This document shows positions 44 through 46,900 of a stretch of DNA of 64,000 bases, piece by piece. The DNA comes from Lytechinus pictus. Taxonomy: Eukaryota. A program made the position numbers and the translations under genes. Below the pieces are notes generated by a model. The model was not told where the DNA came from, searched no databases, and saw only the letters and a program-made list of their open reading frames with translations. The stretch lies in the NCBI RefSeq assembly GCF_037042905.1, contig NC_087251.1, positions 18,416,001-18,480,000 on the forward strand. Direction: 5' to 3'. Positions within the stretch are counted from its first letter, which is position 1. Each line of letters opens with the position of its first letter.

Positions 44-2054
44 CAGGGTGCGACATAAGCGCTTGCCCGATTGCCCGGGGCAAGTAAAAGTTAGAGTCGG
101 GCAAGTGTTTTGAAGCAAAGACAAAAACTGCTTGCCCGAATGGGGCAAGCAAAAATCTCCTATGGAAATTATATTTTAGAAAGATTCCCCATATTTCACC
201 ATAAAAATAAAGACAAAAAAAAGACAAAAAAAAGCAATATCATTAATTTCTTCTTTCAAAAAAGTTTATTTCGAATTGCAAAATTTGCGCCATTTTCTGC
301 AATAAACACACAGCTCAGAGACGCACACACACACAGAATCAATGGCAGTCTAGCGTACCTAGCTCGCTAGCACCTAGTCCACGCAACCGATGCGTGTAGT
401 TAAGTTTCTACGGAGTACGAGTAGGTCAACAGCCTACAGTGCTGCACAAACGAAGTTTGCTCTGGAAGAAACCTCCCACTGTACTGTCAAAATTCACATT
501 TCTTACCAATGAAAATTCTTGTAATGTCCATATTTCCTAAAAATTGGGGTAGCTCTGTCATTTGTAAGCAGTAAAAGGAGAAATTTTCACTTCTGGTATG
601 CTTCAAAAAGATCGGGTTTCGAATGATCGTCTGTATCGCACACACTGAAATACATTGTTTGACAGTCCCACATATGCATTTGTGTGTATGTTGATGAACG
701 TGGTTTCTTTCGTCCCTTTTTTTTTTAGCCAAGGAAATTTATAAATTTTCTTCTTTATTTATGACTGGATAATTTGAGCTTTCTTCCTCGCTATTTTCTT
801 TCTTTCTGCCTATCTTTCCTTCTTTTGAATCTCTCTTTATTTCTTTAAATTTCCTTCCTTCTTTTGTTCATTTTTTCTGTTACTATAGCTGTCTTTCTTT
901 TTTGTCATTTTTTCTTTCTATCTTTTTTTCTTTCTTCCTTCCATCCAACCTTTGTTTACCTCTTTCTTTAATCCTTCCTTCTTTTTCCCCTTCCTTTCAT
1001 TCTTCCTTACTGTCTTCCTTCCGTCCATCCATTCTTTACCTTTTCTTCCTGTCTTTTTTTCTTCCTTACTTTCTTCATCCCTTTCATTCTTTCTTTTCTT
1101 TCTTTCCTTCATTCCTTCTTGTCTTTCATTCTTTCTTTCTCCTTCTTTTCTTTCCTTCTTTCTTTCTTTCTATTTTTCTTTATTTCTGTCTGTCGTTCTT
1201 TTGATCTTTCTTTTTTTCCATCCATCCTTTCTTTTCTTATTTTTTCTTTCTGCCTTCCTTCATCTCCTTCTTTCATTCCTTCCTTCATTTCTTTCTGTCT
1301 TTCATTGTATCTTTCTTTTCTTTTTTTTCCTTCCTTCCATCTATCCTTATACCTTTTCTTTCTTCCTTTCTTCCTTCTTTCCTTTCTCTTGTTTTCTTTC
1401 TTTCCCTTTTCCTTCCTTTCTGTTTACCTTTTTTCTTTTATTCATTCCTTCCTTTCTCTTCCTCTCATTTTTTTTCAATTTTTTTCTTTTTCTTTTTTCT
1501 TTCCATCCTCCTTTCCCTTATTTCTTTCCATCTTTCTCTTCCCCGCAGCCAATATCTCTCTCTCTTTCTTTCTTTATTTCTTTTTTTTCTTTCTTCCTTT
1601 ATTTCTTCGTCCTTTCTGTCTTTCTTCTTACTTTTTTTTCTTTCATTCTCTCCCCCTCTCTTAATTTTTTTTCTCTGGTTATTTTCAGTGATTTCCCCTT
1701 TTTTATTGTGTGTCCTAGTCCCCTCCAAAATATATGGAAAATATATGAGATTAGGAAATTAATTAAAAAGCATATTTACCATTTTGTCATGATGTTCAAG
1801 ATAAAAATCATTAAAAAAAAAGAAATACAACTACAAGGTACATCAGTAGTCATGTTAAAAAATGTATTTTTAAAGCCGTCAATGGTATGGTATGTAAAAC
1901 TATAAGGCTTTAACTTGTTTTGAAGCAATAAAACTTTGTTTTGAAGGATTTTTTCGGGCAAGTGAAATCTATATTCGGGCAAGTATTTTCCAACTATTTG
2001 AAAATTTACTTGCCCGAATGGGCAAGTGCTTCAAAAAAGTTATGTAGCACCCTG
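44..2054. mobile_element. Non-autonomous DNA transposon, hAT-like CAGGG...CCCTG termini, about 2.0 kb
   Basis: TIRs CAGGGTGCGACATAA (44-58) and TTATGTAGCACCCTG (2040-2054). ATGTAG direct repeat on both flanks (38-43, 2055-2060). Subterminal CTTGCCCG/CGGGCAAG repeats at both ends. No transposase ORF. Confidence 0.75.
770..1705. repeat. Polypyrimidine (CT/TTC/TTTC) low-complexity tract inside the 44-2054 element
   Basis: About 0.9 kb almost only C/T on the + strand. It generates the spurious F/S/L-rich ORFs. Confidence 0.9.
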
Positions 2055-5151: not shown

Positions 5152-6796
5152 AAGAAGCAAGGTCAATGCAGAGAAAATTCACTTATTCTATTACATTTTA
5201 CTACCAATCTCATTGTACATGTAGTGCTCTGTCACTACAAATACAGTGTAAATGTAGTTTGTAGTCTACTGTATTTTTTAGGGAGGAAGATTTAATATGA
5301 AAGCAATTGTGGAGATTTCTTGTTGGAAATGATTTATAAGTTGTTTAAAATATTTAATAGTATGTAATTCTTAGAAACATATTAATTTCTATATAACTTG
5401 CATTATTGTTATTATTATTATTCATTTATTTATCTAATTGTCTATTTATTTATTTATTAATTATTATTGTTATTTTTGATTAATTAATTAATTGATTTAT
5501 TTATTAATTATTATTAATAACATCATTTAGCTGTAGTGTTATTAGTAATATTATCATGAAGATATCTTTATTGATGATCAAAAAACAAATGACACAAGTT
5601 TGTGAAAGTTAATGATTTGGATTTAAACTGATCGTGAATAATTTCATGAAAATAAAGTTGTGTACTCTGGATGCACTCACTTCCTTTTCATTATTTGTTC
5701 CTTTTTTGGCTTGTTTTTCATCAACTTTAGAATGTTTTAAGTTTATTTTTAAGAGATGACGATTGAAATCATGTATTACATTTTAGGCTTTACATATACT
5801 TTTTTTTAAAGAAATTAAGAAAGCAGTCTAGTATAGTCTTTAGTCTACATTATCAATATTGATAAACTATTTGTAAACTACATTGTCTCCATACCTTTGC
5901 CTCATGTTTCATCAGTTATTTCACTCAAAACAGTTTGTGAAACTATATGAAGATAACCAGTCAGTTGATACACATATCTTCAGGTACATGACTCGGCATG
6001 ATTATCAATGCAATACAGCAGGTTATTTTCTTGTGTTCATGTTATTTTGATTTCTTTGTATTATTGTTTACTTGACCTGACCTCTAGAACCATACATGTA
6101 GTTATACAATGGAAATATTGTCCTATTTTATTTGAGGTAGAGTGCTGGTGTGTTGTTATCATTCTATGTGGCATGTCACTCAAGGTTATAGATTCATTCA
6201 TAACCTTACCTTAAAGTCGTATGGTAACTTCTTTATTTAAACAAACTAACCCCTGGTTCTGTTCGTCATTTTCCCTTATCAATTTCAAAACAATGTAATC
6301 AGAAATTGTGTAATATTTTCAAAATGATAATACACTAGTTAACTTATGATTACTCTTATCCAATATCCATCATATAAATTTTTCAATGTACATATTGATA
6401 TATTATTATTACTTTAGCTGTAGCCAGTCTGTAGGCAGTCTGTCTGGTTATATTTGTATGAAATACAGATGAATGTACTCAAGTCAAATCTATTGGAACC
6501 ACAAATATCTGTTCAAATTTAATGGGCGAAATTTGACTAAGAAGATAAATACGTGTTATGCATATTTTGGTCCAATATTGTGTTGACTCGTCTAATGAAA
6601 CTTGGAAGGTGAATTAGTATGTATTGTATACTCACTAACTGTAAGACGTTTTCAAACACAATTTGATGATATATTGTTTTACTTGTTATTCCTAACAATT
6701 GCTATAAACAGTGTTTCATATTTGCAAAAAAAGATTGACAAGAGTGGCAAACAAAATCTAACAATTGTTTTCTTTCATTCCTGTCTCCCTCTATAG

Positions 6797-7048
6797 ATGT
6801 ATCACAGCCCAAGCAAGGTGAAAACCAAGAAGCGTGGTCTACCACCCCATGTCCTCTATGTATTGGCTTCAGCCCTCTGTCTTGGGCTCCTAGTTATCAT
6901 GTGGAATGTATACCAGCTTAAGATGATGCAGGAGGCCCACTTCAATGGGCATGGCCCGTACCCAGGTGCCCAGGCTCAGGTTGCAGAGGCATCGGCAGGA
7001 AGTGTGGATAGTTACAGAAGACCTGTGGTGTGGATACATGCAAAACAT
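6797..7048 (+). CDS. ttll15: TTLL15-like coding exon 1 (basic tail, TM helix, stem)
   Basis: TAG acceptor directly before ATG; MYHSPSKVKTKKRG...VLYVLASALCLGLLVIMWNVY...VVWIHAKH; donor GTGGGT. Confidence 0.8.
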
Positions 7049-10000
7049 GTGGGTGGATTATTCATATTTTTCTTGAAGTTTCTTTTTGATGTTTTTTTTT
7101 TTGTGTGTAATACCCATTTGCACCATGTACCAGAGAGGTTTCATGTGGATATGTTTTTATTTAACATTAATGTCTTGGGTGTGAATAATCTCTGTACAAT
7201 ACTCTTGTGGTCAAGAAGCATCGTTTTTGTTGAATTGAGGTAAATGTAGAGAAAAGTCACTAAGTTAAACATGATATCTTGAAAATATTTGAGTACATGT
7301 ACATTGTGATATGATCAAAATATACATCTTGTACACACTTTTTAAGATAATTTTTATCTAAGATTTATTTTTTTGGAACAGAGTGGTTTAAAGATTTGGT
7401 AACAATCAATTTGAAAATTCTGTATGGCATATACGATTAGAATAGTAATGATAATAATTATAATTATTCTGTGTTTATACTGTGGACATATCTGACAAAT
7501 GCACACTAGGTGCACAAAACAATTTTGAACAAGAACAGTTGTCAGGGCAAAAGTGATTAAAAAATAAAGATAAGTACTGCAAAGAGATCAATTATTGTGA
7601 TAGGGATATGTTTCTTGATTTCTTCATGAAAAATGTCTAAGTTATTCTGAAAGAATAGTGTTGATTGTGGAGAGGTTGTTCTAAGTTTACACAGATCTGA
7701 TATTTGGGTGTGAAAATCTGGGTTTTTTTTCTCTCTAAAATGATATATGACTTTCATGTTATCTTTTTTATTAGGTGAATTCTGGATACTTGAAGCATGT
7801 GATGTCTGTATTTGAGAGGGCAGGCTATATCCGTGGTGATGCACAGTCTAGTTGGGATGTTCTCTGGGCCCATGACTACCCTTTCAAAGAACTCGCTGCT
7901 GTTATGGCAAGCCTTAAGCCCTATCAGAAGGTTTGTTTTAATTTACACAGTAGCATATACAGGGAAAAAAAGTGCCAGGGCAAACACTGAAATTGTCAGC
8001 CTTGTAATTGATGCTGGTTAACTGGTGACTTTATAGGTTTTTGATCATATTAATGTGCAAGGTTTTAAAAAAAACTTTTTGTATAACCTTCTGGCTTATT
8101 TGGCTCTTATTCCCTGAAAGTTGTGTGTGGAGCACATGCCTCCCTTTCACACACCGTTCCCCCATGTGCCTCTGCATCTTCATCCTTAAATATAAGTATG
8201 AACATTTCAGTGAAAACGACAATTTGCACAATTCAGTGTCATGCAAATGAGACAGTCGATGATGTCCTTCACTTACTATTTTTTTGTATTTTATTGTTTG
8301 AATTATACACTATTTCATTTTTTACATATTTGACAATAAGGACCAACTTGACCGCACCATATAGTATTGAACAATGCTAATTCCACATGTTCAGGGAGGA
8401 ATTAATCGTTGTCTCACTTGACAATGGGGAGGAAATTAGAATATTTCTAATGCCTAAAATAAAATACAAAAGAAAAAGTGAGTGTATGATGTCATCAATC
8501 TGCTCATATGCATACCGACCAGGATGTGCATATAACTGTTTTAGGGGGAAAATTACTTCCTATGATAACCGAAACACTCTTTTTCTCTTTTTTTTGCAAT
8601 ACATGTACATTATATCAGTTGTTTTTATTGGACATAATTATTATCTTATTTTGTTTTGGTTTTTTCTTACCTAAAGCGAACAATATTCATTTCACTCATT
8701 CTAGGTCAACCATTTTCCAGGAACTGGGTTCATTACCAATAAAGTTTATCTGGCGACATCTGATATTGCATACATTCCAAAGGCCTTCCAAATGCCAGGC
8801 CAGAGAGATGCATTCCTTGTAGAGGTACGTATATGGTGTCATATATAATCCCTTTTTTATATTTAATTGTATTTGATGAACTTACCTGTATTAAATTCTT
8901 AATTTTATTTTACACTGTATTTTTTTTCAACTAATGCTTTTTTTTATTCCTGTAATATGAATGAAAATTGAGCAGTTAGACTTGAGAGTATTTGATATAA
9001 TTGCTACTATGTGTATCATATTGAGTGTCTTTCATATTAATATTTAACATTTTATATTTTACTTTCAATCTCTCTTCATACTAAAGACTAAACAAAATCC
9101 AGACACACTGTGGGTCCAGAAGAGCAGTTCACATAGAGGAATCAAAGTCAAATCCATTGCAGGTTAGTGTGAACAGTCCTGTTTAGAATTTTTTTATAAT
9201 GCTACAGACACACGATGAAGCTGATACCAGGGGCCCGTTGCAGAAAGAGTGCGCAACTTGATTTTCAGCCAATGAACCACCCGTATTCGGGACTTGCACT
9301 TGATATTTTGACTTGCATTTAAACGCAACTCTTTCTGCAACAGGCCCCAGACCAATCAAAGCTATTGTATATCAAATTTAATATCATTGGTCAGAACTTT
9401 GGATTCCATTTCATTGATATGACTGTATCAAAATGCTATACTGTATCCCATTTAGATAACGGAACTGGAGAGTAATCAGATGATGTTTGAACTTGTTCAA
9501 TAATGTTTGTGTGCCAACAAAATTATTTTCATGTTTGTTTTCATTATTAACTATCGGATCAGGTTGATTTATAACTTTTAATATAGATATTATGGGAAGA
9601 GGGTAGAAAATGATGGGATAATTAAAACGTTAATATTATAGAGGAAGGAAGAACTGCTTTGGGACATTTTATTATTCTTGAAGGTCAAAAGGAACTGAAC
9701 CACCTCTTGTAAACCTGAGGTATTTGCGCATTCGGGCCATAGCAGTGTTAAAGACCTAGTATGTTTAGAAAATTAAAGCAGTCCATTCCTTTCATTTTTC
9801 TTTCATATTCCATAATTCATACAAAAATGTTCCTGTCATGTAATATCTTTTGATCAGTAATAGTAGGTTGAAAATTTTACAGATTTTTACAACTTTTGAT
9901 GGCAAGTCAACTAACAGTCATTTGGTAAATGTGCCCACAGATAATAATATTTTTCTTGAAAAAAGCAATACAGATTGCAGCAAAATTATTACTTTTCCCA

Positions 10001-13000
10001 GGATTTACTTCACCTTTTAAGCCAGTGATGAAATCATAACATTGCCTGCTTGAACTACATTGCCCCTAGTACAAGGCATATCGGGATTACAGAATTCAGT
10101 AAGACTCAATTTTTAAACAGTCAAATGACAAGATTACTCGGCATTATTTAATACATGTGTGTCTTGCCAAATTCCAAAACTGTTTTCTTTTATTTTTTAA
10201 AACTAGACCTAGACCTCTATGCTGCAAACACATTTATCCAGCAATATATATCCAAACCTTACCTGATTGATGGGAAGAAATTTGACCTTGGCTTCTACGT
10301 CACTCTGACCTCTGTTGACCCGTTACGAGTCTATGTGCTCCATGACGAGATGCTTGTACGTTTCTGTGCTAAGGAATACAACCCCATTGACTTTGGAGAT
10401 GTCAATAAGTATGTCGTCGGTGATGATTACACTCCAGTTTGGAAGGTAAAAAGCTCTTTTAATGTAGAGGAAATAAGTGGAAGATAGTTAATTTGTCAGT
10501 CAGTCAGTCATTTTATTGATCATTTGAAACAAGAAGATAAACAGAAAAACATGAATACAAAATGATAAATGTAATATAGTCTCAAATCAATACAAGTTAC
10601 AGGTTCCATTCATATTTATGGTGAGGAACCCAGAGAAGCAATATTCCATATAATCGGGGCCCTACAAATGATGTATTCAATTCTGCGTAAGCTAGTGAGG
10701 GGATGAGACACTAAATTGTTTAGTACCATATTTTTGGTTCATCAAATATGTCACACTGGGCTGTAAAATGACATTCCACTCTTCAACAAGGTCTGTTAAA
10801 TGTGTTGAGGTTAGGCACACAGATCGCATCATTAAAAGAAGAATAATGAAGCTTTCCAATGAAATTGTTTGTTTTTTATTTGGAAACATAAAAGACATTA
10901 TACTTCAAACTTGAGTTGCAGTAAATGATTTTGGGGGTAATAGGGTATAATCAATAAAATGAATCAAAATAAAGTGTGTGGTGGTAATTCAGGTTAATAT
11001 TCATAATCATATCCATGTAATACAAAAGATTTTCACTTTCAATGTTTTGCTATGAAATTGCTCTTCATGTTTGTATATTTCTTTGCTAGATGCCATCACT
11101 TCAGAAGTATTATCAAGAATATAATTACAACTTTATGGAAACAATGAATGGATACTGGAGATCAAAAGGTAATATATATACACCAACCTCTCTTCATTGC
11201 CTCTCTGGCTAAGATGTGTTCTATTGGTTATAAAACAACTTCTATAGTTGTGATATTTGCAAGAATCAAGAAAAGATTGTTGTAGTTCTGCAAAGGAAAG
11301 CCAATTTCTCCTAATATGTTAGATTTCTAGATTATTGGAAGTTTTTCTTTATCAAGTGAATGATCATAGGATTGCTCCTAAAAGGAATAATTTACATAAA
11401 ACGAAGAAGAATAGGTCCTGTAATAGGGGCGGTCTCATTGCTCCGATTGCCTTCTGGATCTACGTTTATAGTACAGACCTAAATATGGGGAATATTTTTT
11501 CTATCCTATTTCTGAGTTTAATCATCCACAATCTGCAGTTAGAAAGGTATTGAGTGTGCAGTCCTGGAATTAAGCGAAGGCACCTTGCCAAAGTCCTTGT
11601 CATGTTATTTATAGCAGGAATCCTGCTCATTTTCTGTCACTGCCGCAATTCCAATAGTTTTTTATTTGTTTGTTGATATGGAAGGATTAAAGGAAACCAA
11701 AACCCAAGAAGAGAAGCAATCTTATTGGAAAGAGTAAAATGAGAGGAACTATTTAAAACAAGTTTCATCAAAATCAGTTATGAAATAAGAAAGTTATGGA
11801 CGTTTAAAAAGTCTTGTTGTACTATCAATGGGATCCTCAAATTGGCAAACGTGCTTCAAAATGACTGATTTTGTGGACAACTCTCCATTTGTTTTGTATA
11901 CAAATTTTCAGGTTTTCCCCTTTATTTTACATATTTCACATTATCTCCTCCTGACCTTGACATATGTGGTGTGAATTATATTTTCCCATGACATATGTTG
12001 TGCTCAGAAGGAGGCAAGATGCAATTTGAAAGATAATGAGGAAAATCTGAAAAATTGTATACAAAACAAATGGAGAGTTGTCCACAAAATTAGCCATTTT
12101 GAAGCACGTTTGCCAATATGAGGATTCCCATAGAAAGTTCAACAAGAGTTTTCAAACTTCCATAACTCGCTTATTCTATAACCGATTTTGATAAATCAAG
12201 TTTTAGATTGCTCCTCGCATTTTACTATTTCCAATAAGATTGCTTCTCTTCTTGGATTTTGGTTTCCTTTTTAAAAGTAAGAAGATTCTGAGCAAAATTC
12301 CTGCAAAAAGATGCATCTCAAATTCTTTTTAATTGTCTGAAGCAACAACCTATGGTTATAGGAACTGGGGCCTGTATCACAAATCTTAGCATTCATTCAT
12401 ATAGTGGATTTCTGTGGTTAATTTCATGTAATGAACAATGTAATCAAATGTAAAATTTAACATCATAAATCAAATACTAAGATTTGTGTGACAGAGCTCA
12501 GGGTAGGCAGTGCTTCAGCTCAGATTTGTCAACTTAAGATTCAAAATTAGTGTATTATTTCAGAGTGGTATTTTAATGAGGCATGGTTCAAAGTTTTTCA
12601 ACTGTAATAAGTTAGGCTTCTAAATCTGAGGACTTTTCTAATATTTTAAGTTTTGTTTTTGCGATTTCTGTGTCACAGGTGAAGACCCAGATAAAGTATA
12701 CAGACAAATTTACGAAGCTATTCGTGGAGTATTTGTCAGCAAGTATCCACAGCTTTTAAGTGCTATACAAAGGCATGAAAACAAGCAGTAAGTTAAGTTT
12801 ATCTTCAATGGAATAGCCCTAGATTTTGATGTTGATTTTTATTACCCAAATGACAATCCTTAAAGCACTGGTTGCCAGTCACCAGGGGGGGGGGGGGGTC
12901 TTTCTTGGGAAGGGTGTTTATCCACAACTTGTTAATGCCCCATACTTAGTAGCTTTTTTTTAACAAGAGATGGGTCACGATATCAAACTATCACAAGTAG

Positions 13001-14127
13001 AAAAAGATGGTTATATTTTAGACTGAATAATGGTCAGAAATAAAAATTCAAGGTATGTTTGTAGGAATCATGACCAATTTGGCTTATCATATCTTCTTTC
13101 ATTTTCACAGTGTCTTCTTTGAATTGATGAGATTTGACTTCGTACTTGATGAAGAACTGAATGTATTTCTAATGGAGGTAGGCTTTACCAAGACGTGATC
13201 ATATCAAAAGATTTTGTTTTTATTTAAAAGTGTGAAAAGGAATGCCTTGACTAAACAAGAATACTTATATTGAGTTAGGTATATAAAGTGCTTTCACTTG
13301 AACTGTTCAACTGTATTGTAAATGTATAGTCGTTACATTTTCCCAATTTATCCAGTCAGAGTGCCCATCTGCATAAGTAACCATAAGATGTGATCTGAAA
13401 GGTAGTGATATATCTATAAAAGAAACTCCATTTTAGGGGTAGAATAGTTATTTGAATGATGTTCATGCAATCAGGTTGAAATAAAGAAGTTAACCTGTGT
13501 CACTAATTTTACAAGCCTAAAAAAAAATCAATATTGGCTTTGTAATTGTGCAGTTTATCGAAATATAGTTATAACACCTAATTGGTCAGAATCTGCTCCC
13601 TATGATCATACAGCATAATTCACCTATACATGTATTTAGCATTGCAGTTGATATGGGCTGAGTCTTTCAAAAGTCTGTACTCATTATTTATGTATTATCT
13701 TGAAATGTGATTATTTCTGATTGCAGGCTCATCATTATTATTTTTCCTTCATTTCAGGTGAACATGTCTCCTAACCTATCATCAGCTCATTTCACTGAGA
13801 ATATACATCTCTACGAGAGAGTGGTGTATAATGTTCTCAGTGTCAATGGTGTAGCAAGGAATGTGCCTTCAAGCTTGAAAAACAGGTAGGAAACCATTCA
13901 GCTGCAAATATGACAAAACAGATTGATTTTGTTGTGCTGATTTTAAATTAGCTGTCAGCTGTGGGGTGAAAAATGATTGATTTGAAGATACTCCAGATGT
14001 TAATGATGGTGGTGGTTTTGATGATGATAATGAGGATGAGAATAATGGATGACAATGATGATGAAGATGATTGGTGATGATGACGATGACGACTATGATG
14101 ATGGTGGTGGTGGTGGTGGTGATGATG

Positions 14128-14183
<56 letters not shown>

Positions 14184-15994
14184 GATGATGATGATGGTGC
14201 TGATTCATGCTCATAAGAAAACTGATAATGCTTATAGTGATGCTAAGCATGCTTACATGTGCATTTATTTAAACTATAACAAAGACAACAATCACGGTGA
14301 CAATGGTGTTAATTTAGTTGATGATGATGATGATGATAAAAATCATGCTGCTGATGAAATGATTATAAGAAAAGTCAGAAGTGAATGTTTTCCTGTATAG
14401 TTGCTAGGGCCATTTCAAAGGTGTCCAAACATACATTATATAAGAAGGATACGCATGTAAATGTTTATCTTTGCTTTCAGTGCAATTAAAATGTTGCATA
14501 TTGAATCAAGATATATTTATCAATCCAGTTTAACAAGTACATATGATACCTGTTTATTGTATGAGTTGACATATATCTAGCTCTTAAGAGATCATAGTGA
14601 TGGTGGAAAGTGTAACAAAATTAATTTATGATTTCTGAATTTCTTTGCTTTTTAGTGATTCAAGAGAGAGAGGGATGCAAGTTAGTACAAAGGAAATCCT
14701 TGTGAAGCCAGACCTATGCAGTTCTGAAAAATGCTTCACTTGTGAAAAAGAGGTAACAGTGTTAAAATGAATTACATTTTAGTCATGTGGTTCTATTTCA
14801 TTATTAATTGCTATGATAAATTTTAATAGTTGGCTATTAGAGTGAAAATATGGGAATCAATGGGAATTAAATTTTAGTCATATCTTTTTGTTTTATCATT
14901 AATTACAATGGTAATTCTTAATTAATTCTTAGATATTTCATTTGCTATCTAATGTAAGCAGACATTTCACTCCATGACTCCATTACTTGACACATGTATA
15001 ATTTTTATATTCAAGCTATCACTATTCTCTACTACTACCTACTTGTATATCTGAACCAGATTATTGCTGACAGAACACTAAGAAATTCTGCAAAATGATA
15101 TTTAATTGTATTTATTTTTTTCTCCTACGTAGGAATGTCGAATTTGTTATAAATGTCTGTCACCCCCTCAGAGATTAATGCTACAAGATGCATTCCTTGA
15201 ACATAATAATAGGCAGAGTATGAGGAGAGTTTACCCAGTAGCTGTGGTAAGTTGGTTAAGCCTATCAAATTGGCAACAGTATAGACAATGAAGTTATGTT
15301 GTGAGAGTTGCCCTTCCCCTTACCCTGATTATATTGTAGTATAGTATGCATATCTGATGACATATAGCTTCGCAAGGTAAATTGAAATGATAGCCTCATG
15401 CTGATTGCATATTACTTGCAGAAAGAGTAATTTGACACTTCAATTTGTGAATCTTTTCTTTCTAATATAATAAAGAAGTGAAAAAAATGTTTGCACTCTT
15501 TATTATTGCTCTGCAAGAAAAATCCATCATGTTTTTGATAAAGAGACATTTCTATTTTCTATGTGTGTGAAGATAATGATGATTAAATAGCACTTTTAAA
15601 ACACTTAATTTGTTATGCTCACTTTTTTTAGGAATGAATTCCTGCCAGATCCCTATAAAACTTGCCTGGGTTGATTACAGCATAATATCAATGAATTTCT
15701 TGCTGAAGGAAATTGACCACCCCCCGGCTATGCAATTTCAAAATAGTCTGGGCTATATAGGGTTAATGTTTTACACTGTAGCCCCACACAATCACCAGCT
15801 GTCTGCATTGAATGCTATTATTATTTCTGTATTTGTGCCACTAACTTTCTTTTAAAAAAATGTTATCTTTTCAGGCACAAGATCACGCCAAGTACTATGA
15901 CATCACATCAGATGGAAGCCTCCATGAGAATGATCAGATCATGAGAGAATGGTTCATTGCAAAATGTGCCCAAGATTTATCATTTTGTCAGTGA
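6797..15994 (+). CDS. ttll15: Tubulin-tyrosine-ligase-family ATP-grasp protein, TTLL15/ttll-15-like, 518 aa, 12 coding exons, N-terminal signal anchor
   Basis: Exons 6797-7048, 7775-7930, 8705-8824, 9087-9162, 10207-10445, 11090-11168, 12679-12787, 13111-13177, 13758-13885, 14656-14752, 15133-15246, 15875-15994 join in frame (1557 nt with stop). TTL motifs VNHFPG..ITNK, WVQK...HRGI, FIQQYISKPYLIDGKKFDLG, FELMRFDFVLD, LMEVNMSP. Subfamily assignment is from recalled family features, not a search. Confidence 0.85.
7775..7930 (+). CDS. ttll15: TTLL15-like exon 2
   Basis: VNSGYLKHV...WDVLWAHDYPF...LKPYQK; AG/GT flanks. Confidence 0.88.
8207..8545. mobile_element. Internal fragment of the TTAA-flanked element family seen at 56541-57651
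   Basis: Colinear similarity (GTCGATGATGTCC..., CATGTTCAGGGAGG.ATTAATC, GCATACCGACCA.GATGTGCATA). Lacks the nested TA element. Confidence 0.7.
8705..8824 (+). CDS. ttll15: TTLL15-like exon 3
   Basis: VNHFPGTGFITNKVYLATS...AFLVE; AG/GT flanks. Confidence 0.9.
9087..9162 (+). CDS. ttll15: TTLL15-like exon 4
   Basis: TKQNPDTLWVQKSSSHRGIKVKSIA; phase 0 to 1. Confidence 0.85.
9228..9350. mobile_element. Short palindromic MITE (CCAAT core family)
   Basis: TIRs GGGGCCCGTTGCAGAAAGAGT / ACTCTTTCTGCAACAGGCCCC, CAG on both flanks, internal AGCCAATGA. Confidence 0.75.
10207..10445 (+). CDS. ttll15: TTLL15-like exon 5 (ATP-grasp core)
   Basis: FIQQYISKPYLIDGKKFDLGFYVTLTSVDPLRVY...RFC...KYVVGDDYTPVWK. 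Confidence 0.92.
11090..11168 (+). CDS. ttll15: TTLL15-like exon 6
   Basis: MPSLQKYYQEYNYNFMETMNGYWRSK; phase 0 to 1. Confidence 0.85.
11691..12268. mobile_element. Long-TIR non-autonomous element at a TTAA site (Kolobok-like termini)
   Basis: TTAA|AGGAAACCAAAACCCAAGAAGAGAAGCAATCTTATTGGAAA ... TTTCCAATAAGATTGCTTCTCTTCTTGGATTTTGGTTTCCT followed by TTTTAA. Inverted arms of about 230 bp. Confidence 0.8.
12679..12787 (+). CDS. ttll15: TTLL15-like exon 7
   Basis: EDPDKVYRQIYEAIRGVFVSKYPQLL...; phase 1 to 2. Confidence 0.85.
13111..13177 (+). CDS. ttll15: TTLL15-like exon 8
   Basis: VFFELMRFDFVLDEELNVFLME (conserved D and E). Confidence 0.92.
13758..13885 (+). CDS. ttll15: TTLL15-like exon 9
   Basis: VNMSPNLSSAHF...LYERVVYNVLS; completes the E-x-N motif. 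Confidence 0.92.
14003..14340. repeat. (GAT)n/(GGT)n trinucleotide microsatellite
   Basis: Direct reading; purest at 14075-14198. Confidence 0.9.
14656..14752 (+). CDS. ttll15: TTLL15-like exon 10
   Basis: DSRERGMQVSTKEILVKPDLCSSEKCFTCEKE. Confidence 0.85.
15133..15246 (+). CDS. ttll15: TTLL15-like exon 11
   Basis: ECRICYKCL...AFLEHNNRQSMRRVYPVAV. Confidence 0.87.
15875..15994 (+). CDS. ttll15: TTLL15-like last coding exon
   Basis: AQDHAKYY...NDQIMREWFIAKCAQDLSFCQ then TGA. Confidence 0.85.
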   Translation, partial: AQDHAKYYDITSDGSLHENDQIMREWFIAKCAQDLSFCQ

Positions 15995-18410
15995 TGGATA
16001 TTTGATCAACAAGCCAATTTCTGGAAATGCTGCAATAAGTACATAGACTTATCTTACAGTGGCTGATGCATACAAGGGATGTATTTATCTGCTAAAAGGG
16101 CCATGTGTCTTTCATATCACGAAGGCAAATCCATATAGGTGCTTTCAAGATGTTTTGCAATATTAAAAGGCATGTCTGTGCCTGGGCCAATTTCTCTAGA
16201 CTTTAATCAATTTGCTTTTGGCCAATCAAGATGCATAATTTTAATATTACAGTAGCTGGTACTACTGATGTGTTATTGATTAAAGTTTTCATGAAACAGG
16301 GCAAGAGGGGGGAGGGGTGGATATAAAGCTCCAATGAAATTTCCTCTGTTGTTCCTGTTCAGTCATACTCTATTGATTTAAATCATTTTGATGCCATGAT
16401 GGAATTCATGTACCCATTAAACCATAAGAGTGAATGAACTGTCTATTGATTATGTTGCTATTGCATATTAATACAGGGTATAACAAAATAAATCATATTC
16501 TCATAATCATATTAAATTTCTGTCAGAAAAATAAAAAATGTATCTATATTTTCATTATTTTTGTTGTGTGTTTGTGTAGGGTGAGGGTCTCACTTGCACA
16601 TTCTTATTCAGTTTGTACCTTGTATACGTATATCACTCGAATGCACTTACATATATGTCTCTCCTGCAAATAGATAATCATTCTATGCAGTTTTCATTAT
16701 TATTTTTAGTGAGAATGTGCATTTTCTCACTAATGATTGCACCGCCAAATGATGATATTGTATATAAAGTTTTTACCTAAAAGTAAAGAGTAGATGAGTT
16801 CTGATTGGAATAATCAGGTGTGTCATCATTGGATGTTTAAAAAGAAAATACAAAGAGCAACTTCTCAGTTGAGCTGCATAAAAGGGACCTCAATTTTTCA
16901 TGTCATTTAATGCTATTTTATAATCTTGAAGTAGAATTTGAAATGTAATTTCATTTTGCCTTTATGCTGTAAAAGTAAAACTACCTCCTCCTACAATAGC
17001 AAGTAGGATAGTTGACACATATTCCTTCACAGAAATGTATGGTTGACTTTTTTTGTAGTGTGAAAGAAAAATTAAACTCTTTCAAGTAGACATGCATGAT
17101 TTGATTTTGGGATTTTTTAAAAGAGGAAATCAAAATTACATACAAGGTGCAGGGAAGAGTGAGACTTTATAAAATTTTGTTTTTTATTCTTTTTTAATCT
17201 TATGAGAATTACACTTTTTTCATGAATTGTATCCAATAAAAAAAAGGTTATAATTTACAGTTTTATATACCCTTGGTACTTTAAAAAATACTACAATTGG
17301 AGATATGTGTTAAAATGAGGCATGTTGCCTGAGCATAGGGAGAATATGAGACCATGTAAAACATATATATTTCATTGTGGAATCTGGTATACTCTTAATA
17401 TAAGTATTCAATATTTTTCTCTGAATTGCCAATGTGTTATTTTATGATGATATTCTGTTTTCTTACTGAAATTGAAAAAGCAATGGGAAAGTTTTACATA
17501 GATCCAGATTTCTTGCCAAAATTTAAATGTAAAATGATTGGTAAAACAAAATATGATGGCATAATAAGTTGACTTGTCAGAAGGAAGAGAATATTAAAGT
17601 GTGTATGGATAACAACAGTAAAAGATGTAAATGGTGCTTTGTGAGGTAAATGGGTACCAAGGTGAGGTAAATTGGTACTGGCAGGAAGTAATTCCTAAAA
17701 AAAGCTGTGAGCACCGGAATCGGTAGACTAGCTTAGCTGGTGGTCTGGTTTATAGATTCAATTTAAAAAAAAAACTTTATTTTAACTAGTATTCTCCCAA
17801 AGGGTTGCCAAATTTCACAGATGTGTCATAAACCATATTTACAGAAAGCTGTATGCATCTATAAGAATGGCTCCAGATATTTTAGCCATTGCCATACCTC
17901 ACACATGATTACATGTTTAAAAAATTGTGTGCTTTTGTGTAGAATATAATAGGTGACAATCTTTGCAAATATATGCCCTGTAAGTATGAACCAAAGTACT
18001 ATTTTCTAATGCAGTAGGCCTTAGTTTTGTACAAGTTCACACTGAATGTACTATTCTATATGTAGATTTTAGTGTATGATGTGTCCCATGTATGTTTAAT
18101 TTTTAATAAGTGTGTTTTCTTGCAATTTTCTCAATTTTATCACTTTCTTTGACCATACTTGTATTGTGTATTTATGCAAATCTATTACAGATCTTATATT
18201 TGTATCATGTACCCTGAAGTGTCAACTAATTAATGACAGGGAAATTGCTCCTCCGTCATTTTTTTGATGTGTAGTTCTACTTGTGATGTAGAATACCATT
18301 TGTATAAAATATTTTTTTGTAGATTTTTTTCTTTCCCTCAGTTGTTTGTATAAATCAGTACTCTGTTGTAAGAAACAATTTACATTGTTGAAATGTTTGT
18401 ACATCTGTTG

Positions 18411-23000: not shown

Positions 23001-26000
23001 TGAGACTGATCAGAGGATAGACGCAGAGTGAAATTAGAATGAAATGTAAGAATATTTGTTGTGAACCCATTGTAAGGTCATTTTGTCGTATGAATTTATG
23101 TTTTACCAACATAAAGTGACACCTTTGTCACTTGGAATTATCAGGGCGAGTTAAGTACCTTGAGGGTTTGGGTAGGTGTAGCGGTAGTGAAGTGTAGTGG
23201 AGCCTACATGTACACGAACCCTCACTTGAGGTATCTCTATACATGTACATGTAGATCTATGCAGTGTACTAGTGAAGTGTAACACTCACTCAATAAACAA
23301 GGTTATGATATATTACGGAAAGCTTTGTTCTCTGTTACTACTTTCTTTGTGGGGAAGTACGGTTGGCATTGTTTGGCTTATATTTGGCTCTTAAGTATGG
23401 TAAATTTACTTTTAATTATTTTTCAAAATTAAAAATGACAATTTTCTTGAAATTTTACTTTCCAACAATACATAGAGGGCCTACACAAAAATTTGCCCCA
23501 GATTCAAGTTTTTGAGCACTCTGGTGAATACAATAATGATTCCCAAGTTACTAATGAAAAATAAATTGCAACTGTATGGAAATGAGTATTTTTGGTTTTA
23601 AGTGGTATTTTATTTAATGATTTTTTTTAAAGTGTGTTGTATACTCCATATACCTAGGCCTACATGTACATGTAGATTCTTCACAGGAAGTGTGGTCGCA
23701 CTTGCAGTGAACAAGTGTCTGATAATAATATTACATTTATAGAGCGCTTTATATCGAAATCTCTAAGCACTTTAGACTTATTGAATTATGATAATTTATA
23801 TTCTACATTATTATGTTAACATTAAATATACATTACATGACATATCATTACAAAGTATAATACTATGGAATTAAACTACACTATATTATTAAACTACATG
23901 TACATCAAATACTGTACAACAATGAAAACTACAAAAGTTAGAATAGATAGGTTTTGACAGATTTCTTGAAATTGGCTATTGAGGTTGTTACACGTAGTTG
24001 GGGAGGTAGAGAGTTCCAGAAATATGATGCGAGATTGGTGAAGGCATGTTCTCCAGAGTAGTTGGTATTGACTCTGGGAGTTTGGAGAAGGTGGTTTAGA
24101 TTGGCCGACCTTAGATTTCTGTTTGGTACATAGAAATTGATGAGGTGTGAGATGTAGGAAGGAGAGTTACCATTCAATGCTTTGAAGACTAAGAGAAGGA
24201 TTTTGTACTGGATACACAGATGAATAGGAAGCCAATGGAGAGAGAGAAGAAGAGGTGTAAAGCGCTCATGTTTGCAGGCCTTTACGACTATCCTTGTAGC
24301 AATATTCTGAACTCGCTGAAGTTTCTTTAATCACTGAGTCAGGTAAATATCCAAGCAGTGTATTGGACTATTGGATGAGTCCAACCTCGAATGCATGCAC
24401 AAGCATTTCTGCAGTACGCTGATCAAGGTAGTCACGAATGCCTCCTATCTTCCAAAGGGCTGCCTTAGCTGAACTACACATTCTATTTACATGGGCCTTC
24501 ATGGTAAAATGTTCATCAGTCGTGGCTCTGGGGTTTTTGGCAACTGCTCTACTGGGTACATGTATCTCTTCCCTTCCTACGTGAATGCTGACATCTGGAC
24601 AACACCTCAAATAGAACTTTGAGATGAAATGTATTACATGTACCTCTGTTTTCTCGTCATTCATAGTCAGTTTGTTATTTGCAGACCATGCTTGGATATC
24701 CGAGAGACAATTGTTGAGTCTAGCAATGGCGGTGTCTCTCTCATCAGAATTGAAAAAGCTGTAAATTTGGGTATCATCTGCGTAAAACATGGATTCCATG
24801 TTATGGGCACGAATGATGTCCTGAATTGGTGCGATATAGAGGGTGAAGAGGAGGGAGCCTATCACCAATCCCTGCAGGACTCCACATTCATCATCAACTT
24901 TTTTTGATACAGCATTTCCAATTTTTACTGTATGACTGCGGCCATTCAGATAAGATTGAAACCAGCCAAGGACACTTCCGGAAAATGCAAAGCGTTGAGA
25001 TAGTCTATCAATTAGGATTGAATGGTCTATAGTATCAAAAGCAGACGAATAGTCCAAAAGGACTAGTATGGCTTCCTTCTTTTGATCAAGTGCTAAAAGG
25101 ATATCATTCTGTATGGGGAGGAGGGCTGTTTCAATGCTGTGATGTGGTCGATACGCAGATTGTGTCTCTGCGTATAGGTCGTGGACAAGTAGATGGTCTT
25201 GAATGTGCGTAATGACTGCCCTTTCAGCTATCTTGCTTATATAGCTGATGTTTGAAATTGGCCGGTAGCTTAAAAAGTTGCTCAGCAGGCAGAGAAGACT
25301 TTCAGTCGTGGGACCATGATGGACTTCTTCATATCCGACTGTACGATACCAGACTGAAGGCTCAAATTAACTTTGTGACTGGAGGAATGAGTTCAGGCAG
25401 GCATCTTTTAATGAGAGATGTAGGCAGAGCATCAAGGTCACACGTGAATGATGATGTAGATTTGATGATTCGCTTGATCTCTTCCTCTTGAACCAAATCA
25501 AACTCATCGAAGTTTAGACCGATGGGTTCGGGAATATCGACTGACAGTCTTTCATTTCTCTTAGCTTTCAGATGACTCTTCAGATTTCTTATCAATTGCA
25601 AGACGAAATCAGCAAATATGTTTGCAAGTTCACTTGCACAGTGATGTTCCGGAAGAACAGGTGTTATATCAGGGGATGTATTAGGTGATCATTGATACGA
25701 AATAGATGCCTTTGATCCGAGTCCAAAATCTTGTTTTGAAAGTGATGGACTCTGGTTTCTTTCAGGAGATCATTGTAGGCCTTGCACTTTTCAGCATAGA
25801 TGTCTTTATCAACCTGGAGTGAAGTCTTCATCATTTTCCTCTCTTGGCGTGTGCGCAGTTGCTTGGAATTTGGGAGAGTATTCGTGTACCAAGGGGCATG
25901 GGGTCTGAGAATGACCTCTCTCTCACCCTATAGGAGCATGGTCTTCAAGAATGTGTAGTGTAGTTCTGAAACCCCAACAACAAGGTGTCCCATTTTATCC

Positions 26001-42800: not shown

Positions 42801-43872
42801 CACTTCAAAATACCTTATGCATTAAATATAAATACATTGTCAAAATGTACTAATCACAAGGGAGAAAGAGGCCCTGGGGGGGGGGGGTAATATCCAGAGC
42901 CTCTTGGAATAAAACATCTTATTCTCACAATCCTATAGTACAGTTGACTCAAGCCACACAGTTTTGAGAACTTACTCATGTGAATATTTACAGTTGTACA
43001 ACGCCTACTTAGCTTGTTGTACGCGAGCAAATGGGAGGCTGAATGTCAAACATTCGTACCGTTGCACACACGACGTACCATCCAAAATGTACCGTCCAAA
43101 TTGTACCGTTGCACGGCTTTAGGAGGTGACGTCACAATACGATTCAATTCATTGCGCTCAGTAAAAATGCAGGCTAAATGCGCAATGCTGCCCGAGGTGT
43201 TCGCTTGTGGGATTTTGCTTTTCGCTTTCCATATTTTTGCTACCTTTTCATAGATTACTGCAGGAAAAACTCTTTGTTTTTTCATAAATTCGCTAAACTC
43301 CGAGGCGTTGTACAACACAAATAGCGAATATTCTTATTCGTGTAATGGTGCGAGATTTCGCATTCGGTGAAAGAAAGAAACACTCTATTCAACTCGGCTT
43401 ACGCCTCGTTGAATAGAGCATCTTTCTTTCACCTCATGCGAAATCTCGCACCATCGCACTCATGCCTATTCGCTATTTGTATACTGGTGCATGATGGAAG
43501 CATGGTGGTCACAACAGCTTGCTCTAGCCTTTGACAAAGGTGATTAAATCTCCCTTCCCATGACAGAAGGAAGCAACTCTGATTTTTTTTTCTTCCAAAT
43601 TGACCTTTTTCTTGATTTGTGACATTTTCTCTATGCTCTACATTATGCTAAAGGAATAGCCCCCAATTTCTGAAATACTGTATAGACATTTCAAAAGGAA
43701 GTAACTCTATATTTCCATATAAAATGGCAAATTTTCATCATTTACAAAGAATCTCATTCCACAGATTCGCTTTCTTTTGTCAGTGGACAGCAGAAATAAA
43801 CCAAATGCATCTTCCCCTACATCAAGGATGTGAGAATAATACTGGAAAAAAACAGTCTGAAAAAAAAATAAA

Positions 43873-43911
<39 letters not shown>

Positions 43912-46900
43912 CCCTTGAGAATACTTACTGCAGCAGAGAGGTCATAACTGTATCCAGCATTGCCATACAAGTCAATGTCCAATGCAGTGAGTTTTCCCTC
44001 GTTGGTGAAACCGACCTTGTAACGACCTAGGAAGGGATTCCTACCCCCTGTGGATATCATATCCTCATCTCTGTCCAACATGTATCTCACTGGTCGATTC
44101 AGTCTACAATAAAAAGCATGATGAAAGTAAAAATTAACCTGAATAGGTGTGTAGCAAGAAAGTTTTATTTCCCAAAAGATAAATTTGCAACTGATACATC
44201 AGAATCATCTATACAAAATTATACTTATGCTGTAAGGAGCAGACCAGTATTCCAAATTTATAATCAATTCCAAAACTTGTAATCTTTTAAGTGACCCTTC
44301 AATGAAATACAACAACTAGCAAAGGTCGCAGTATCTTCGCCTCAATCAGTTGTATAGCAACTGGTAATCTACAAGGGGTATCAGAACCCGGGAAAGCTCA
44401 ATACGGTGTTAACAATGTGGGAAATAGTTGAAGTTTCATTTGTAATTCTAAGATAAACTTTACAAAGATTACATTATTTTTGCAATACCCTAAAATAGTG
44501 TGTATGCCATTCCTTCTAGGGCTGTCATGAAAAACATAAGAAAAGGGATAGCCAGTCAGGAGGAGGGTTAGGCATTGATACCTTTTTTTTTTAAAGTGCC
44601 CCCATTAATCTCAGAGCCAACTGTGGGGAGGGCAAAAAATAGAAAATGGCAGTCTTACTTGTTGGCAGCCAGAGCACATATTGCAGCCAGCATCGAGCTT
44701 CTACTTTCCTTTCCTCCGAACCCACCTCCAATACGCTTGGTACGACAGACGATACGATTGAATGGAACACCTAGAGCTATGGATGTGATTTTCTGTAATA
44801 AAAAAACAAACAAAAGTGTGATCTTTGTATGTTCAGGAGGATTCTCATCAATCTGAATTCAACAAGAGTACTTTGACAAGCAACATTAAATCTGATTCAG
44901 TCAAATCAATTTCATGGTAAAGACATCCAATATCCTCACTAAAAAAAAAAAAAAAATATAGTTCATAAATTAATTCCAGATACTATTACAGGTTCAAAAC
45001 AATTACTTTGAAAAAAAGTATAAATTTTATATTCAAACAAATTTTATAATATAATTTGCCTGATTGAATATTTTGATAGCAAAAAAGACAATTTTATTGC
45101 AATAAACTATATACCCGTGATATGAATAGTAAGAACTAATTCTGTAGCAGTGAGCGATGTATTCCATGAATAAATGGAAAACAAACAGTCACATTAAATA
45201 TCACTAAACTAACCTGAGCTTCTGTGGGATGTTGTGTTGATACAAATATCTCAATCTCCCCATCCTCCCCTTTAGGAATAGCAAAGGCACACTGCGTCTC
45301 AAGGTAGAAATGCTCTTGACCTCCGACCTTCATCTCACCCTCGATCACATGATCAGACTTCTCTAGGGCCTCCTCAACATCACCATTCTTGAAGCCTTTG
45401 GTGACGGGGAAGAATGATTGCCTGGCGATGGCATCCTGTAAGAAGAAATCAAAATAAGTATTTACTGAAGAGACGCAAAAGACAGTTTAGTGTACAATCT
45501 AGTATTGGCTCTTCATCAGAACAGGGGCAATTTATTCAAAATAAAAGAAATTCACTATTCAGTTGCACTTATTGTAGTTACTAAGGCAAATACCATGGTA
45601 ACAATGCTCAATCTGAAATAACTACATGTATAAGGAGATCAGGGAAGTAATATTGAATGTTAAAGTTCTATTTGGAATAATATAATAAAAAAGTTATATG
45701 AAACAGGACCCTATAAATTCTTGCTAGTGTGAATAAAACACAAGTTATAATTTGATACAGTGTTGTTTTTTTTGTTAAGGCAGAGCTTTATCACCATTTC
45801 ATATATTAAATAATACCATCCTCTGAAAATAATAATTGTATAAAAGTATTTGCATTTTGGACACATTTTCAATTTCATACAGTTTGTCAGCCACCATAGA
45901 GCATGCCTGGCTATGACCAATGCAATAATTGCTTTCAATTTGATTGGTCAACAAGCATTGGATGAAAGGCATGAGCATAAAATTTTCTTTTCCAGCAGCT
46001 ACATGTCCAATTGACATGTACACTAAAAATTTTGCAAAGTGTGTCAGTGGTTTTTCTCTGAACACGCCTTTGGTGTATAAACAGAAATCTAGGACTCACC
46101 TCGATAGTAATGATAGATTCCAACTCCTCGTATTCTATCTGTACTAATCTTGCACCCCTCTGTGCCAAGGCCTGTGTCTCTGCAATGATAGCTCCTATTG
46201 GCTGTCCTACATGGTGAACCTTAAAATAAAACAATCATATAATTAGTAAGAGCATATTGATGATCTCGTGTGTAAAATCATACAGTCACTGCTAACTATT
46301 TGAGCGGAGGGCCTACTGGTAACTTTTCGAAATTTGAATGAATAATAAACTTGTTGAGTATTTGCACTTGTGGCATGCAATCATTTAAGCCAGATTAAAA
46401 ATCAAGGAAATGTAAGTTTCAAAATCAAACATTTACCAAGATGTCTATGACTAAAATGCACCATTCTTGGAATGGTTTAGTGGTTCTTTGTGTACAGTTC
46501 TGCATTCTATGAGGGAAATACATCTTGCATTCCCAGTCAATTATGTATGTGTCCATAGGTTGATGCACATGATAATCAACCCATGTAAATATGCACTCCT
46601 AAATAAGATTTTTTTACAGATTTTTTTCAGCTCACCTCTGTTGTTGCTAATAGTTCTTCATCATGGAAGACAGACCCAACATGATTACTCCCTATCACAT
46701 CCTTATAACTCAGAAAATCATGCACGCCCTCTAGTGACAACGCCTTGGATGGATCAATAGATCTGGTTTATGTGAGGAAAAAAAAGTGGATTCATATTAG
46801 CTGGCAAGATTTCATTTCATTCAATGTTTCTGCAACTTTTCAAATACAAAATAAAAAATAATATACATAGTACATAACAAAATATCTAACAATAAAAAAT

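Follow-up and report, generated by a model that had tools for sequence, protein, structure and literature searches.

A TTL-family gene on the forward strand (6797-15994) of a 64,000-nucleotide stretch of the Lytechinus pictus genome (contig NC_087251.1, positions 18,416,001 to 18,480,000; hereafter the window) encodes a member of the TTLL15 family. The databases label this whole family 'probable tubulin polyglutamylase', and C. elegans genetics counts TTLL-15 as a glutamylase. The reading that best explains the data presented here, with a probability of about 0.6, is that the protein is a type II membrane enzyme whose catalytic domain faces the lumen and which ligates a donor other than glutamate to a substrate other than tubulin. 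This reading is preferred because a predicted signal-anchor, the charges flanking it, the sparing use of cysteines in the fold, the co-occurrence of the membrane helix with a cysteine cluster, the loss of glutamylase marks from the active site and a neutral protein surface all agree. A wider proposal is put forward tentatively, at slightly under even odds: most animals, from corals to sharks, may possess an ATP-grasp ligase, facing the lumen or placed on the cell surface, that modifies secreted or membrane cargo in an undescribed way, using an amide-type bond to join a non-glutamate amino acid or an amine to a carboxylate on a protein, glycan or lipid. In this proposal the active-site type is shared with bacterial enzymes encoded beside export machinery, and the label 'tubulin polyglutamylase' would be wrong for the whole TTLL15 family. 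The family and its fold are known, and no earlier description of the membrane topology, the active-site type or the bacterial kin was found in the literature.

The gene comprises 12 coding exons with AG/GT borders on all internal exons, and its spliced product is 518 aa long. This product is identical at 517 of 518 residues to the database protein P0001, 'probable tubulin polyglutamylase ttll-15 [Lytechinus pictus]', with F164Y as the one difference, and shares 508 residues with its L. variegatus counterpart, the other ten being different. The near identity to a named ttll-15 member, together with the presence of all family signature residues, identifies the gene as a TTLL15 orthologue. It is single-copy in the genome of the window (C7:18416001-18480000), which holds seven weaker TTL-family exon matches besides. 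The transcript was reconstructed from contigs of four public runs (three studies, two organisms) aligned on 5500-17500. The archive does not register these runs as RNA, the label 'RNA?' being a guess; they are read as transcript evidence because contigs lacking all 11 introns are what mRNA gives. The original prediction depended on the exon at 6797-7048 being joined to position 7775, and this joint is present in contigs of all four runs, with 7049-7774 skipped between GT and AG ends. Ten further GT..AG joints follow down to 15875 in intron-less contigs, all 11 introns being removed. What the original prediction called exon 1 is an open exon with an ATG start and a GT donor, but it is only the first coding exon: an AG acceptor (6795-6796) lies immediately before the ATG at 6797, and the contigs bear 11-29 extra 5' letters that do not adjoin 6797. 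An untranslated exon therefore lies upstream, and 6797 is not the transcript start. At the other end, the 3' untranslated region extends past 17500, with contigs covering 15874-17500.

The first coding exon (residues 1-84) encodes MYHSPSKVKTKKRGLPPH, followed by the hydrophobic run VLYVLASALCLGLLVIMWNVY (nt 6851-6913) and by a low-complexity stretch, so that the basic tail, the helix of about 20 aa and the stem described from the DNA alone are all present. The basic tail spans residues 1-18 (6797-6850) and contains the motif KVKTKKR. The hydrophobic helix, a predicted signal anchor, covers residues 19-39 (6851-6913) and is supported by Kyte–Doolittle (KD) hydropathy, the orthologue alignment and an AlphaFold2 (AF2) model. 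The juxtamembrane end of the helix and a variable, disordered stem take up residues 40-75 (6914-7021). The 19-residue KD mean reaches 2.17 at residues 18-36 and the best window past the core motif reaches 0.88, which indicates a single N-terminal helix. In the AF2 model residues 17-51 form one long helix, the local confidence score (pLDDT) falls below 50 at residues 56-62 and 64-68, and the compact fold begins at about residue 75. The stem columns are gappy among orthologues, with amphioxus forms carrying about 270 extra residues there.

Conservation was assessed in an alignment (A1) of 111 database proteins of 490-600 aa, which by their source names come from echinoderms, hemichordates, amphioxus, tunicates, a sawshark, molluscs, an annelid, nemerteans, a brachiopod, a bryozoan, a priapulid, arthropods, nematodes and a coral. 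The succession of tail, transmembrane helix, stem and catalytic domain, which is real in spliced contigs, is kept over about a dozen animal phyla. A helix before the fold (19-residue window, KD >= 1.6) is found in 110 of the 111 orthologues, the exception, P0079, beginning inside the stem; the original prediction had named orthologues without the helix as a finding that would speak against it, and this is not what these 111 proteins display. A helix arising by chance is excluded because of this conservation. The helix is furthermore conserved in sequence, at L27 (94 of 111), G30 (92), T34 (80; Ile in the window protein), N37 (102), Y39 (79) and L41 (96), and positions 27, 30, 34, 37 and 41 share an 80-degree arc on a helical wheel. 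Such a conserved face suggests a specific helix–helix contact, beyond mere anchoring. Type II enzymes of the Golgi and endoplasmic reticulum (ER), such as glycosyltransferases and sulfotransferases, have the same layout of a short basic tail, a helix, a variable stem and a cysteine-bearing domain. However, they bear no sequence or fold relation to TTLL15, whose helix is unusually conserved in sequence.

The 15 residues ahead of the helix carry a net charge of +5 in the window protein and the C-side flank a charge of 0. Averaged over the 111 orthologues the flanks carry +2.68 on the N side and -0.26 on the C side. Compared with the C flank, the N flank is the more positive one in 99 orthologues, carries the same charge in 7 and is less positive in 5. 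Some orthologues have N-terminal tails of only 1-10 residues, resembling classical signal sequences. By the positive-inside rule these charges favour a lumenal catalytic domain, and to this extent the earlier argument from that rule stands, with the orientation a prediction and the Golgi one candidate compartment beside the ER and the cell surface. Two other kinds of membrane anchor, a mitochondrial outer-membrane anchor and a P450-type anchor with the N-terminus outside, were considered and rejected on account of the strong hydrophobicity of the helix and the charge on its N side.

The eight C-terminal cysteines reported in the original prediction are present and conserved. In the window protein they are C430, C435 and C438, encoded by coding exon 10 (14656-14752), C443, C446 and C449, encoded by coding exon 11 (15133-15246), and C510 and C517, encoded by the last coding exon (15875-15994, with the stop codon at 15992-15994). 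All of these but C438, which is found in 109 of 111, are invariant in the 111 orthologues, as is C255 in the fold. The spacings are C-x4-C-x2-C-x4-C-x2-C-x2-C plus C-x6-C. Non-conserved cysteines in the fold of the A1 proteins number 77 in 49,664 residues (0.155 per 100) as opposed to 78 in 5,462 residues (1.43 per 100) in the tail plus helix of the same proteins, making them nine-fold rarer in the fold. Proteins from an oxidising compartment characteristically have hardly any 'free' cysteines alongside a fixed set of even number. The pattern in TTLL15 fits such a compartment, as indirect evidence, with the eight cysteines as predicted disulfide partners. C255 shares a strand with the catalytic R253, two residues further on, and the bacterial relatives (see below) have it too; it probably belongs to the active site rather than to the disulfide set. 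An Fe-S cluster was considered and rejected: a C-x2-C-x2-C motif is there, but it lacks a fourth Cys-Pro, and the bacterial relatives do not have the cysteine cluster. A Protein Atlas search with residues 425-518 returned only TTL fragments with a best score of 0.85, below the meaningful level.

The catalytic domain itself is of the TTL type. The ATP-grasp core described in the original prediction is intact, with the WVQK, QQYI, FDFVLD and EVN motifs present and with a Pfam TTL (PF03133) match over residues 133-396 of 180.2 bits against a cut-off of 20.1 (E 6.7e-53). The AF2 model (pLDDT 90.4, predicted template modelling score 0.84) superposes on TTLL6 (6vzt_B) with Z 33.6 and a root-mean-square deviation of 3.2 over 357 residues (model 73-496 on chain 57-460), on TTLL7 with Z 29.2 and on TTL with Z ~26.5, indicating a three-domain TTL-type ATP-grasp fold. 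TTLL6 is also the closest match in a profile search of the PDB (E 2e-47). TTLL15 thus shares its fold, 23-25% identity and the same ATP/Mg residues with TTLL6 and TTLL7 (PDB 6vzt, 8t42, 4ylr). It differs from them in the added N-terminal membrane helix, stem and eight extra invariant cysteines, in the invariant Cys two residues past R253, and in having no cationic C-terminal part. Residues were mapped through a hidden Markov model alignment to mouse TTLL6, in which the chain index equals the residue number (C179/Q180 on 'sgcQGRGI'). TTLL15 residues K149, K188, R193, Q213, D228, R253, D353, E366 and N368 are kept in 111 of 111 orthologues, and K149, K188, R253, D353, E366 and N368 correspond to TTLL6 K125, K174, R241, D346, E359 and N361. 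The Asp, Glu and Asn of this set are the Mg-binding residues of TTL-type ATP-grasp active sites.

Five positions of TTLL6 are replaced in the TTLL15 family, each in 111 of 111 orthologues: R219 by G230, G344 by R351, Q180 by H192, K377 by Y385 and H362 by M369. In the passages of the TTLL6 structure preprint that assign residue roles, R219 holds the transferred gamma-phosphate and its mutation brings activity to background; the Q180 position is Arg in initiases and Gln in elongases; K283 and K377 are the two lysines for the side chain (gamma-carboxylate) of the donor glutamate and are invariant in glutamylases but not in glycylases; and H362, which is Ile in TTLL4, is among the residues tested for initiation versus elongation (10.1101/2020.06.07.139295). 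In addition, the HLTNYS(I/V)NK segment of TTLL6 and TTLL7 reads YVVGDDYTPVW in TTLL15. These changes are spread over several exons. Coding exon 4 (9087-9162) encodes WVQK with K188 and the invariant pair H192-R193, H192 occupying the TTLL6 Q180 position. Coding exon 5 (10207-10445) encodes QQYI, KFDLG with G230 (10290-10292) at the TTLL6 R219 site, R253, C255 and YVVGDDYTPVW. Coding exon 8 (13111-13177) encodes FFELMRFDFVLD, with R351 (13130-13132) where TTLL6 and TTLL7 have Gly, together with D353 and E366, and coding exon 9 (13758-13885) encodes VNMSPNLSS with N368, as well as Y385 at the TTLL6 K377 site.

The phosphate-holding pair of arginines typical of the TTL family is incomplete in TTLL15, as R241 is kept as R253 and R219 is replaced by Gly. 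As a control, Arg is present at the R219 position in all seven paralogous TTL loci of the same genome and in TTLL7. R351 lies two residues ahead of D353 on one strand (348-357 in the model), for which reason it would point into the active site, and it may take over from R219. Judged from the alignment, one of the two phosphate-holding arginines would thus have moved to another strand. The pocket for the donor, read in the same way, does not match that of glutamate ligases. Some other donor is proposed because the glutamate-holding lysines are not conserved, K377 being Tyr in all orthologues and K283 falling in a loosely aligned region with no conserved Lys. Neither the relocated arginine nor the altered donor pocket formed part of the original prediction. 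Its inference that this 'probable tubulin polyglutamylase' would not meet tubulin is supported by the loss of glutamylase marks from the active site, with the R219, K377 and Q180 equivalents changed in every orthologue. The expected lack of a basic tubulin-binding surface was addressed by charge counts, a weak test: the net charge is -2 both for residues 76-518 and for residues 410-518, the median for the fold over the 111 orthologues is 0, and the 22 residues past the TTLL6-aligned part run to the end of the protein, which is consistent with the absence of a cationic microtubule-binding part.

In one JGI record the name 'tubulin monoglycylase TTLL15' is given to a protein of this family. Glycylases as such are soluble enzymes of cilia. 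Compared by their description in the preprint passages, the glycylases TTLL3, TTLL8 and TTLL10 carry hydrophobic or polar residues where glutamylases have the two glutamate-binding lysines, much as TTLL15 does at K377. At the Q180 position the same passages give Arg for glycine initiases and Gln for the glycine elongase, whereas TTLL15 has His (10.1101/2020.06.07.139295).

The distribution of the helix and the cysteine cluster was followed in a library of representatives (50% identity clusters), which holds 215 proteins at E <= 1e-30 and from which the 64 of at least 430 aa were examined. A C-terminal part of at least 100 residues is present in 51 of the 64, and in a whole-protein search of the library the cysteine-rich C-terminal part was seen only in TTLL15-like proteins. 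The helix occurs in 33 of the 51, and 31 of those 33 hold at least seven of the eight cysteines. In another 13 the fold is preceded by fewer than 40 residues; nine of them contain the cysteine cluster and are probably truncated, and four hold at most three of the eight cysteines. The last 5 of the 51 have at least 40 residues before the fold and no window of KD >= 1.6. Two of them are borderline (1.51 and 1.56), the other three being a horsehair-worm isoform, a merged gene model and a foraminifer. The foraminiferal protein, P0305 from Nonionella stella, is TTLL15-like outside animals, with four of the eight cysteines and a very long branch.

Proteins with a TTLL15-type core also occur in bacteria and metagenomes, with lengths of 594-667 aa. 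P0273, P0293, P0317 and P0318 have neither the helix nor the cysteine cluster (0-3 of the 8 columns). Together with P0323 they carry an extra P-loop domain of about 250 aa and are encoded on metagenome contigs of 5-122 kb. The extra domain matches NCBIfam 'HprK-related kinase A' (TIGR04352) with E 6e-17 to 3e-9, under the family cut-off. The same architecture of ligase plus P-loop domain is found in a Pseudomonadota metagenome-assembled genome (L008:7902-9761, forward strand), where the gene comes after genes for an AI-2E-type transporter, an outer-membrane efflux protein (OEP), a HlyD-type adaptor and a DUF2955 protein, with an RTX-repeat protein, HlyD and a C39-ABC exporter encoded nearby on the opposite strand. 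All six bacterial and metagenome proteins have the full signature of H192, G230, R253, C255, Y270, D274, Y276, W280, R351 and Y/F385. In comparison with TTLL15, the bacterial ligases are therefore complete in signature but lack the helix and cysteine cluster, gain the P-loop domain and, in the genome cited, stand in an export-gene neighbourhood. In a quick tree of 44 rows, which is limited by a short search, by long branches and odd composition, and by an outgroup of three closely related rows, the six form one clade (Shimodaira–Hasegawa-like approximate likelihood ratio support 99) beside eukaryotic TTLL15 (91). Profile searches of loci gave 0 loci for P0273 alone and 1 locus for alignment A2. 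Because these six proteins share the signature, the active-site type appears not to be tied to tubulin tails, and it would work in organisms without them; the cysteine cluster, for its part, seems to travel with the membrane helix. That the same type of active site is found in bacteria, as judged by its residues, without the helix or the cysteine cluster is likewise new relative to the original prediction.

The name of the window protein and its orthologues, as assigned by NCBI, derives from C. elegans TTLL-15. Nematode orthologues from Plectus, Steinernema, Gnathostoma and filariae carry both the helix and the signature. According to the passages of the C. elegans literature that deal with it, TTLL-15 has no mouse orthologue, is not resolved in the tree and has no identifiable cationic microtubule-binding domain (PMC5051658). 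Staining with GT335 is reported there at the wild-type level in ttll-15(tm3871) (PMC5051658). When deletions of ttll-9 and ttll-15 were combined with a triple mutant, the axonal polyglutamylation signal did not decrease (PMC11216746). Elsewhere in these passages ttll-15 is counted among five glutamylases (PMC7592914), and the protein is treated as a presumed alpha-tubulin glutamylase with a specificity stated to be untested. Clear tubulin glutamylation in vivo, which the original prediction regarded as telling against it, does not emerge from these sources, the mutants showing no loss of glutamylation in the passages concerned (PMC5051658). The worm genetics do not contradict a lumenal, non-tubulin reading. 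A membrane helix is not mentioned for TTLL-15 in the C. elegans passages. Among the papers listed, none was relevant by title or abstract to a TTLL with Golgi-lumen or type II transmembrane topology; nor was any found that links ATP-grasp with the Golgi lumen, or under the names 'TTLL15' or 'tubulin tyrosine ligase-like 15'.

In the mechanism proposed for the type II, lumen-facing ligase, the helix would be directed to the ER by the signal recognition particle, with the basic tail staying in the cytosol and the catalytic domain entering the lumen of the secretory pathway or reaching the cell surface. There, the eight C-terminal cysteines would form four disulfides stapling the C-terminal lobe. 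Lumenal ATP-Mg would turn a carboxylate of the substrate into an acyl-phosphate. R253 and R351 at its new position would hold this intermediate, playing the part that the R219/R241 pair has in TTLL6, and a non-glutamate amine or amino acid would then attack. Through its conserved face (L27, G30, T34, N37 and L41), the membrane helix would bind another helix, belonging either to a second copy of the protein or to a partner. Precedent for the use of ATP in the lumen is given by the secretory-pathway kinases and the ER AMPylase FICD, although no ATP-grasp ligase is, to our knowledge, known there.

Several observations weigh against a lumen-facing ligase. The topology is a prediction, and the five orthologues with a more positive C flank do not conform to it. 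Moreover, 14 of the first 135 database proteins are short at the N-terminus and have no helix. Most of these begin at a conserved Met right after the helix, or inside the helix end, and look 5'-truncated; translation from the post-helix Met as a true soluble isoform is, however, conceivable. Glycosylation leaves no signature, because conserved N-X-S/T sequons in the 111 orthologues are limited to the active-site motif NMSPNLS, the others (about 1.7 per protein) not being conserved. A cytosolic domain with two Zn(Cys)4 sites would be compatible with the cysteine spacings as well. In P0305 the N-terminal helix is missing and a hydrophobic run is found near the C-terminus instead, an arrangement that would leave its catalytic domain in the cytosol. 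As to chemistry, K377 is the only one of the two glutamate-binding lysines that is firmly mapped, the takeover by R351 follows from strand geometry, and without an R219 equivalent the protein could be inactive. Finally, the link between C. elegans TTLL-15 and the family rests on NCBI naming and on the other nematode orthologues, and the C. elegans protein is not among the 120 matches listed for a query with the Plectus orthologue.

Some of these observations would be accommodated by a membrane-tethered cytosolic ligase, in which the helix anchors the protein to the cytosolic side of the plasma membrane, the ciliary membrane or an organelle, the cysteines bind zinc, and tubulin or an acidic protein near the membrane is modified. 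The C-x2-C spacings are suited to zinc knuckles, conserved sequons are lacking outside the active site, the fold is nearest to the tubulin glutamylases TTLL6 and TTLL7, P0305 looks tail-anchored and the flank charges are reversed in a few orthologues. Such an arrangement is nevertheless considered unlikely, given the prevailing flank charges (+2.68 against -0.26, with N above C in 99 of 111), the nine-fold scarcity of non-conserved cysteines in the fold relative to tail plus helix, the absence of the cysteine cluster from the cytoplasmic bacterial relatives, the missing glutamate-binding Lys and cationic C-terminal part, and the lack of a glutamylation defect in the C. elegans mutants as reported in the available passages (PMC5051658). 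Still less probable is an ordinary soluble tubulin polyglutamylase whose N-terminal helix is an artefact or irrelevant. The database name, membership of the TTL family and the listing of ttll-15 among the glutamylases in passages of C. elegans papers speak for it; yet the exon with the helix is spliced to the rest in all four runs, the helix is kept with a conserved face in 110 of 111 orthologues, the active site is without glutamylase marks, and glutamylation is described as unchanged in the mutants (PMC5051658). This explanation is given very little credence.

The domain could alternatively be a pseudo-ligase, i.e. a dead or repurposed ATP-binding protein of the secretory pathway that serves as a binding or regulatory subunit. 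This would account for the Gly at the R219 position in 111 of 111 orthologues, mutation of which drops TTLL6 activity to background, and for the fact that the literature passages report no phenotype for ttll-15 single mutants. The likelihood of a pseudo-ligase is rated as low, since all other ATP/Mg and phosphate-holding residues are invariant, a new invariant arginine, R351, shares a strand with the Mg-binding Asp and precedes it by two residues, and the signature is kept from animals to bacteria, as is typical of a working active site.

If the type II, lumen-facing reading is true, the 'glutamylase-null' multi-mutant worms have been interpreted with one enzyme among the set that never meets tubulin. 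The animal secretory pathway would then contain an ATP-dependent amino-acid or amine ligase, no such case having been found in the literature, and a new modification of secreted proteins, glycans or lipids would await discovery. Biochemical work would have concrete handles in the arginine at its new position, in the invariant cysteine of the active site and in the relatives from bacteria.

Additional variation was noted within the family. Amphiura filiformis has an ordinary TTLL15 (P0005) as well as the divergent P0264 and P0254 (31-33% identity), which keep the helix and the eight cysteines; in P0264 the active-site signature is altered. P0182 (936 aa) consists of two tandem TTLL15-like units. 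A Pfam search of the longer members for extracellular domains found none in the amphioxus long forms, and the HAD and RNase_T fusions (P0209 and P0208) look like merged gene models.

The remaining coding exons of the gene, all on the forward strand and supported by contigs and the coding sequence, are exon 2 (7775-7930), which encodes the N-domain of the TTL fold, exon 3 (8705-8824), which by profile alignment contains VNHFPG and K149 (TTLL6 K125), exon 6 (11090-11168) and exon 7 (12679-12787). Ahead of exon 5, at 10195-10210, two in-frame AG acceptors lie 6 nt apart (CTAG|ACCTAG|AC). The contigs use the downstream one, 10207, and an alternative TTLL15 form with two extra residues from the upstream acceptor is conceivable. 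Intron 6 contains two nested inverted repeats at 11689-12270, with arms of 145 and 146 nt that are 86% and 84% complementary. Contig depth reaches hundreds to tens of thousands there, as well as at 7906-8707 (intron 2) and 9109-9509 (intron 4), like that of expressed or multi-copy repeats. Intron 9 holds a long triplet-type simple repeat (13948-14268), the frames of which read poly-His, poly-Asp or poly-Ile/Thr; the contig alignment was cut at this repeat.

Elsewhere in the window, about 1.1 kb of CT-rich low-complexity sequence is found at 773-1905 (forward strand), with several open frames giving Phe/Leu/Ser-rich translations. On the reverse strand, positions 43700-56400 contain exons of a xanthine dehydrogenase / aldehyde oxidase-like gene, with a [2Fe-2S] binding domain at 56033-56389, FAD_binding_5 at 52564-52896 and a molybdopterin cofactor-binding domain at 45136-45486 and 43707-44198. 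Between this gene and TTLL15, an open frame on the reverse strand (23938-25366) has a reverse-transcriptase domain (RVT_1, E 6.7e-29) and is probably a retrotransposon remnant.

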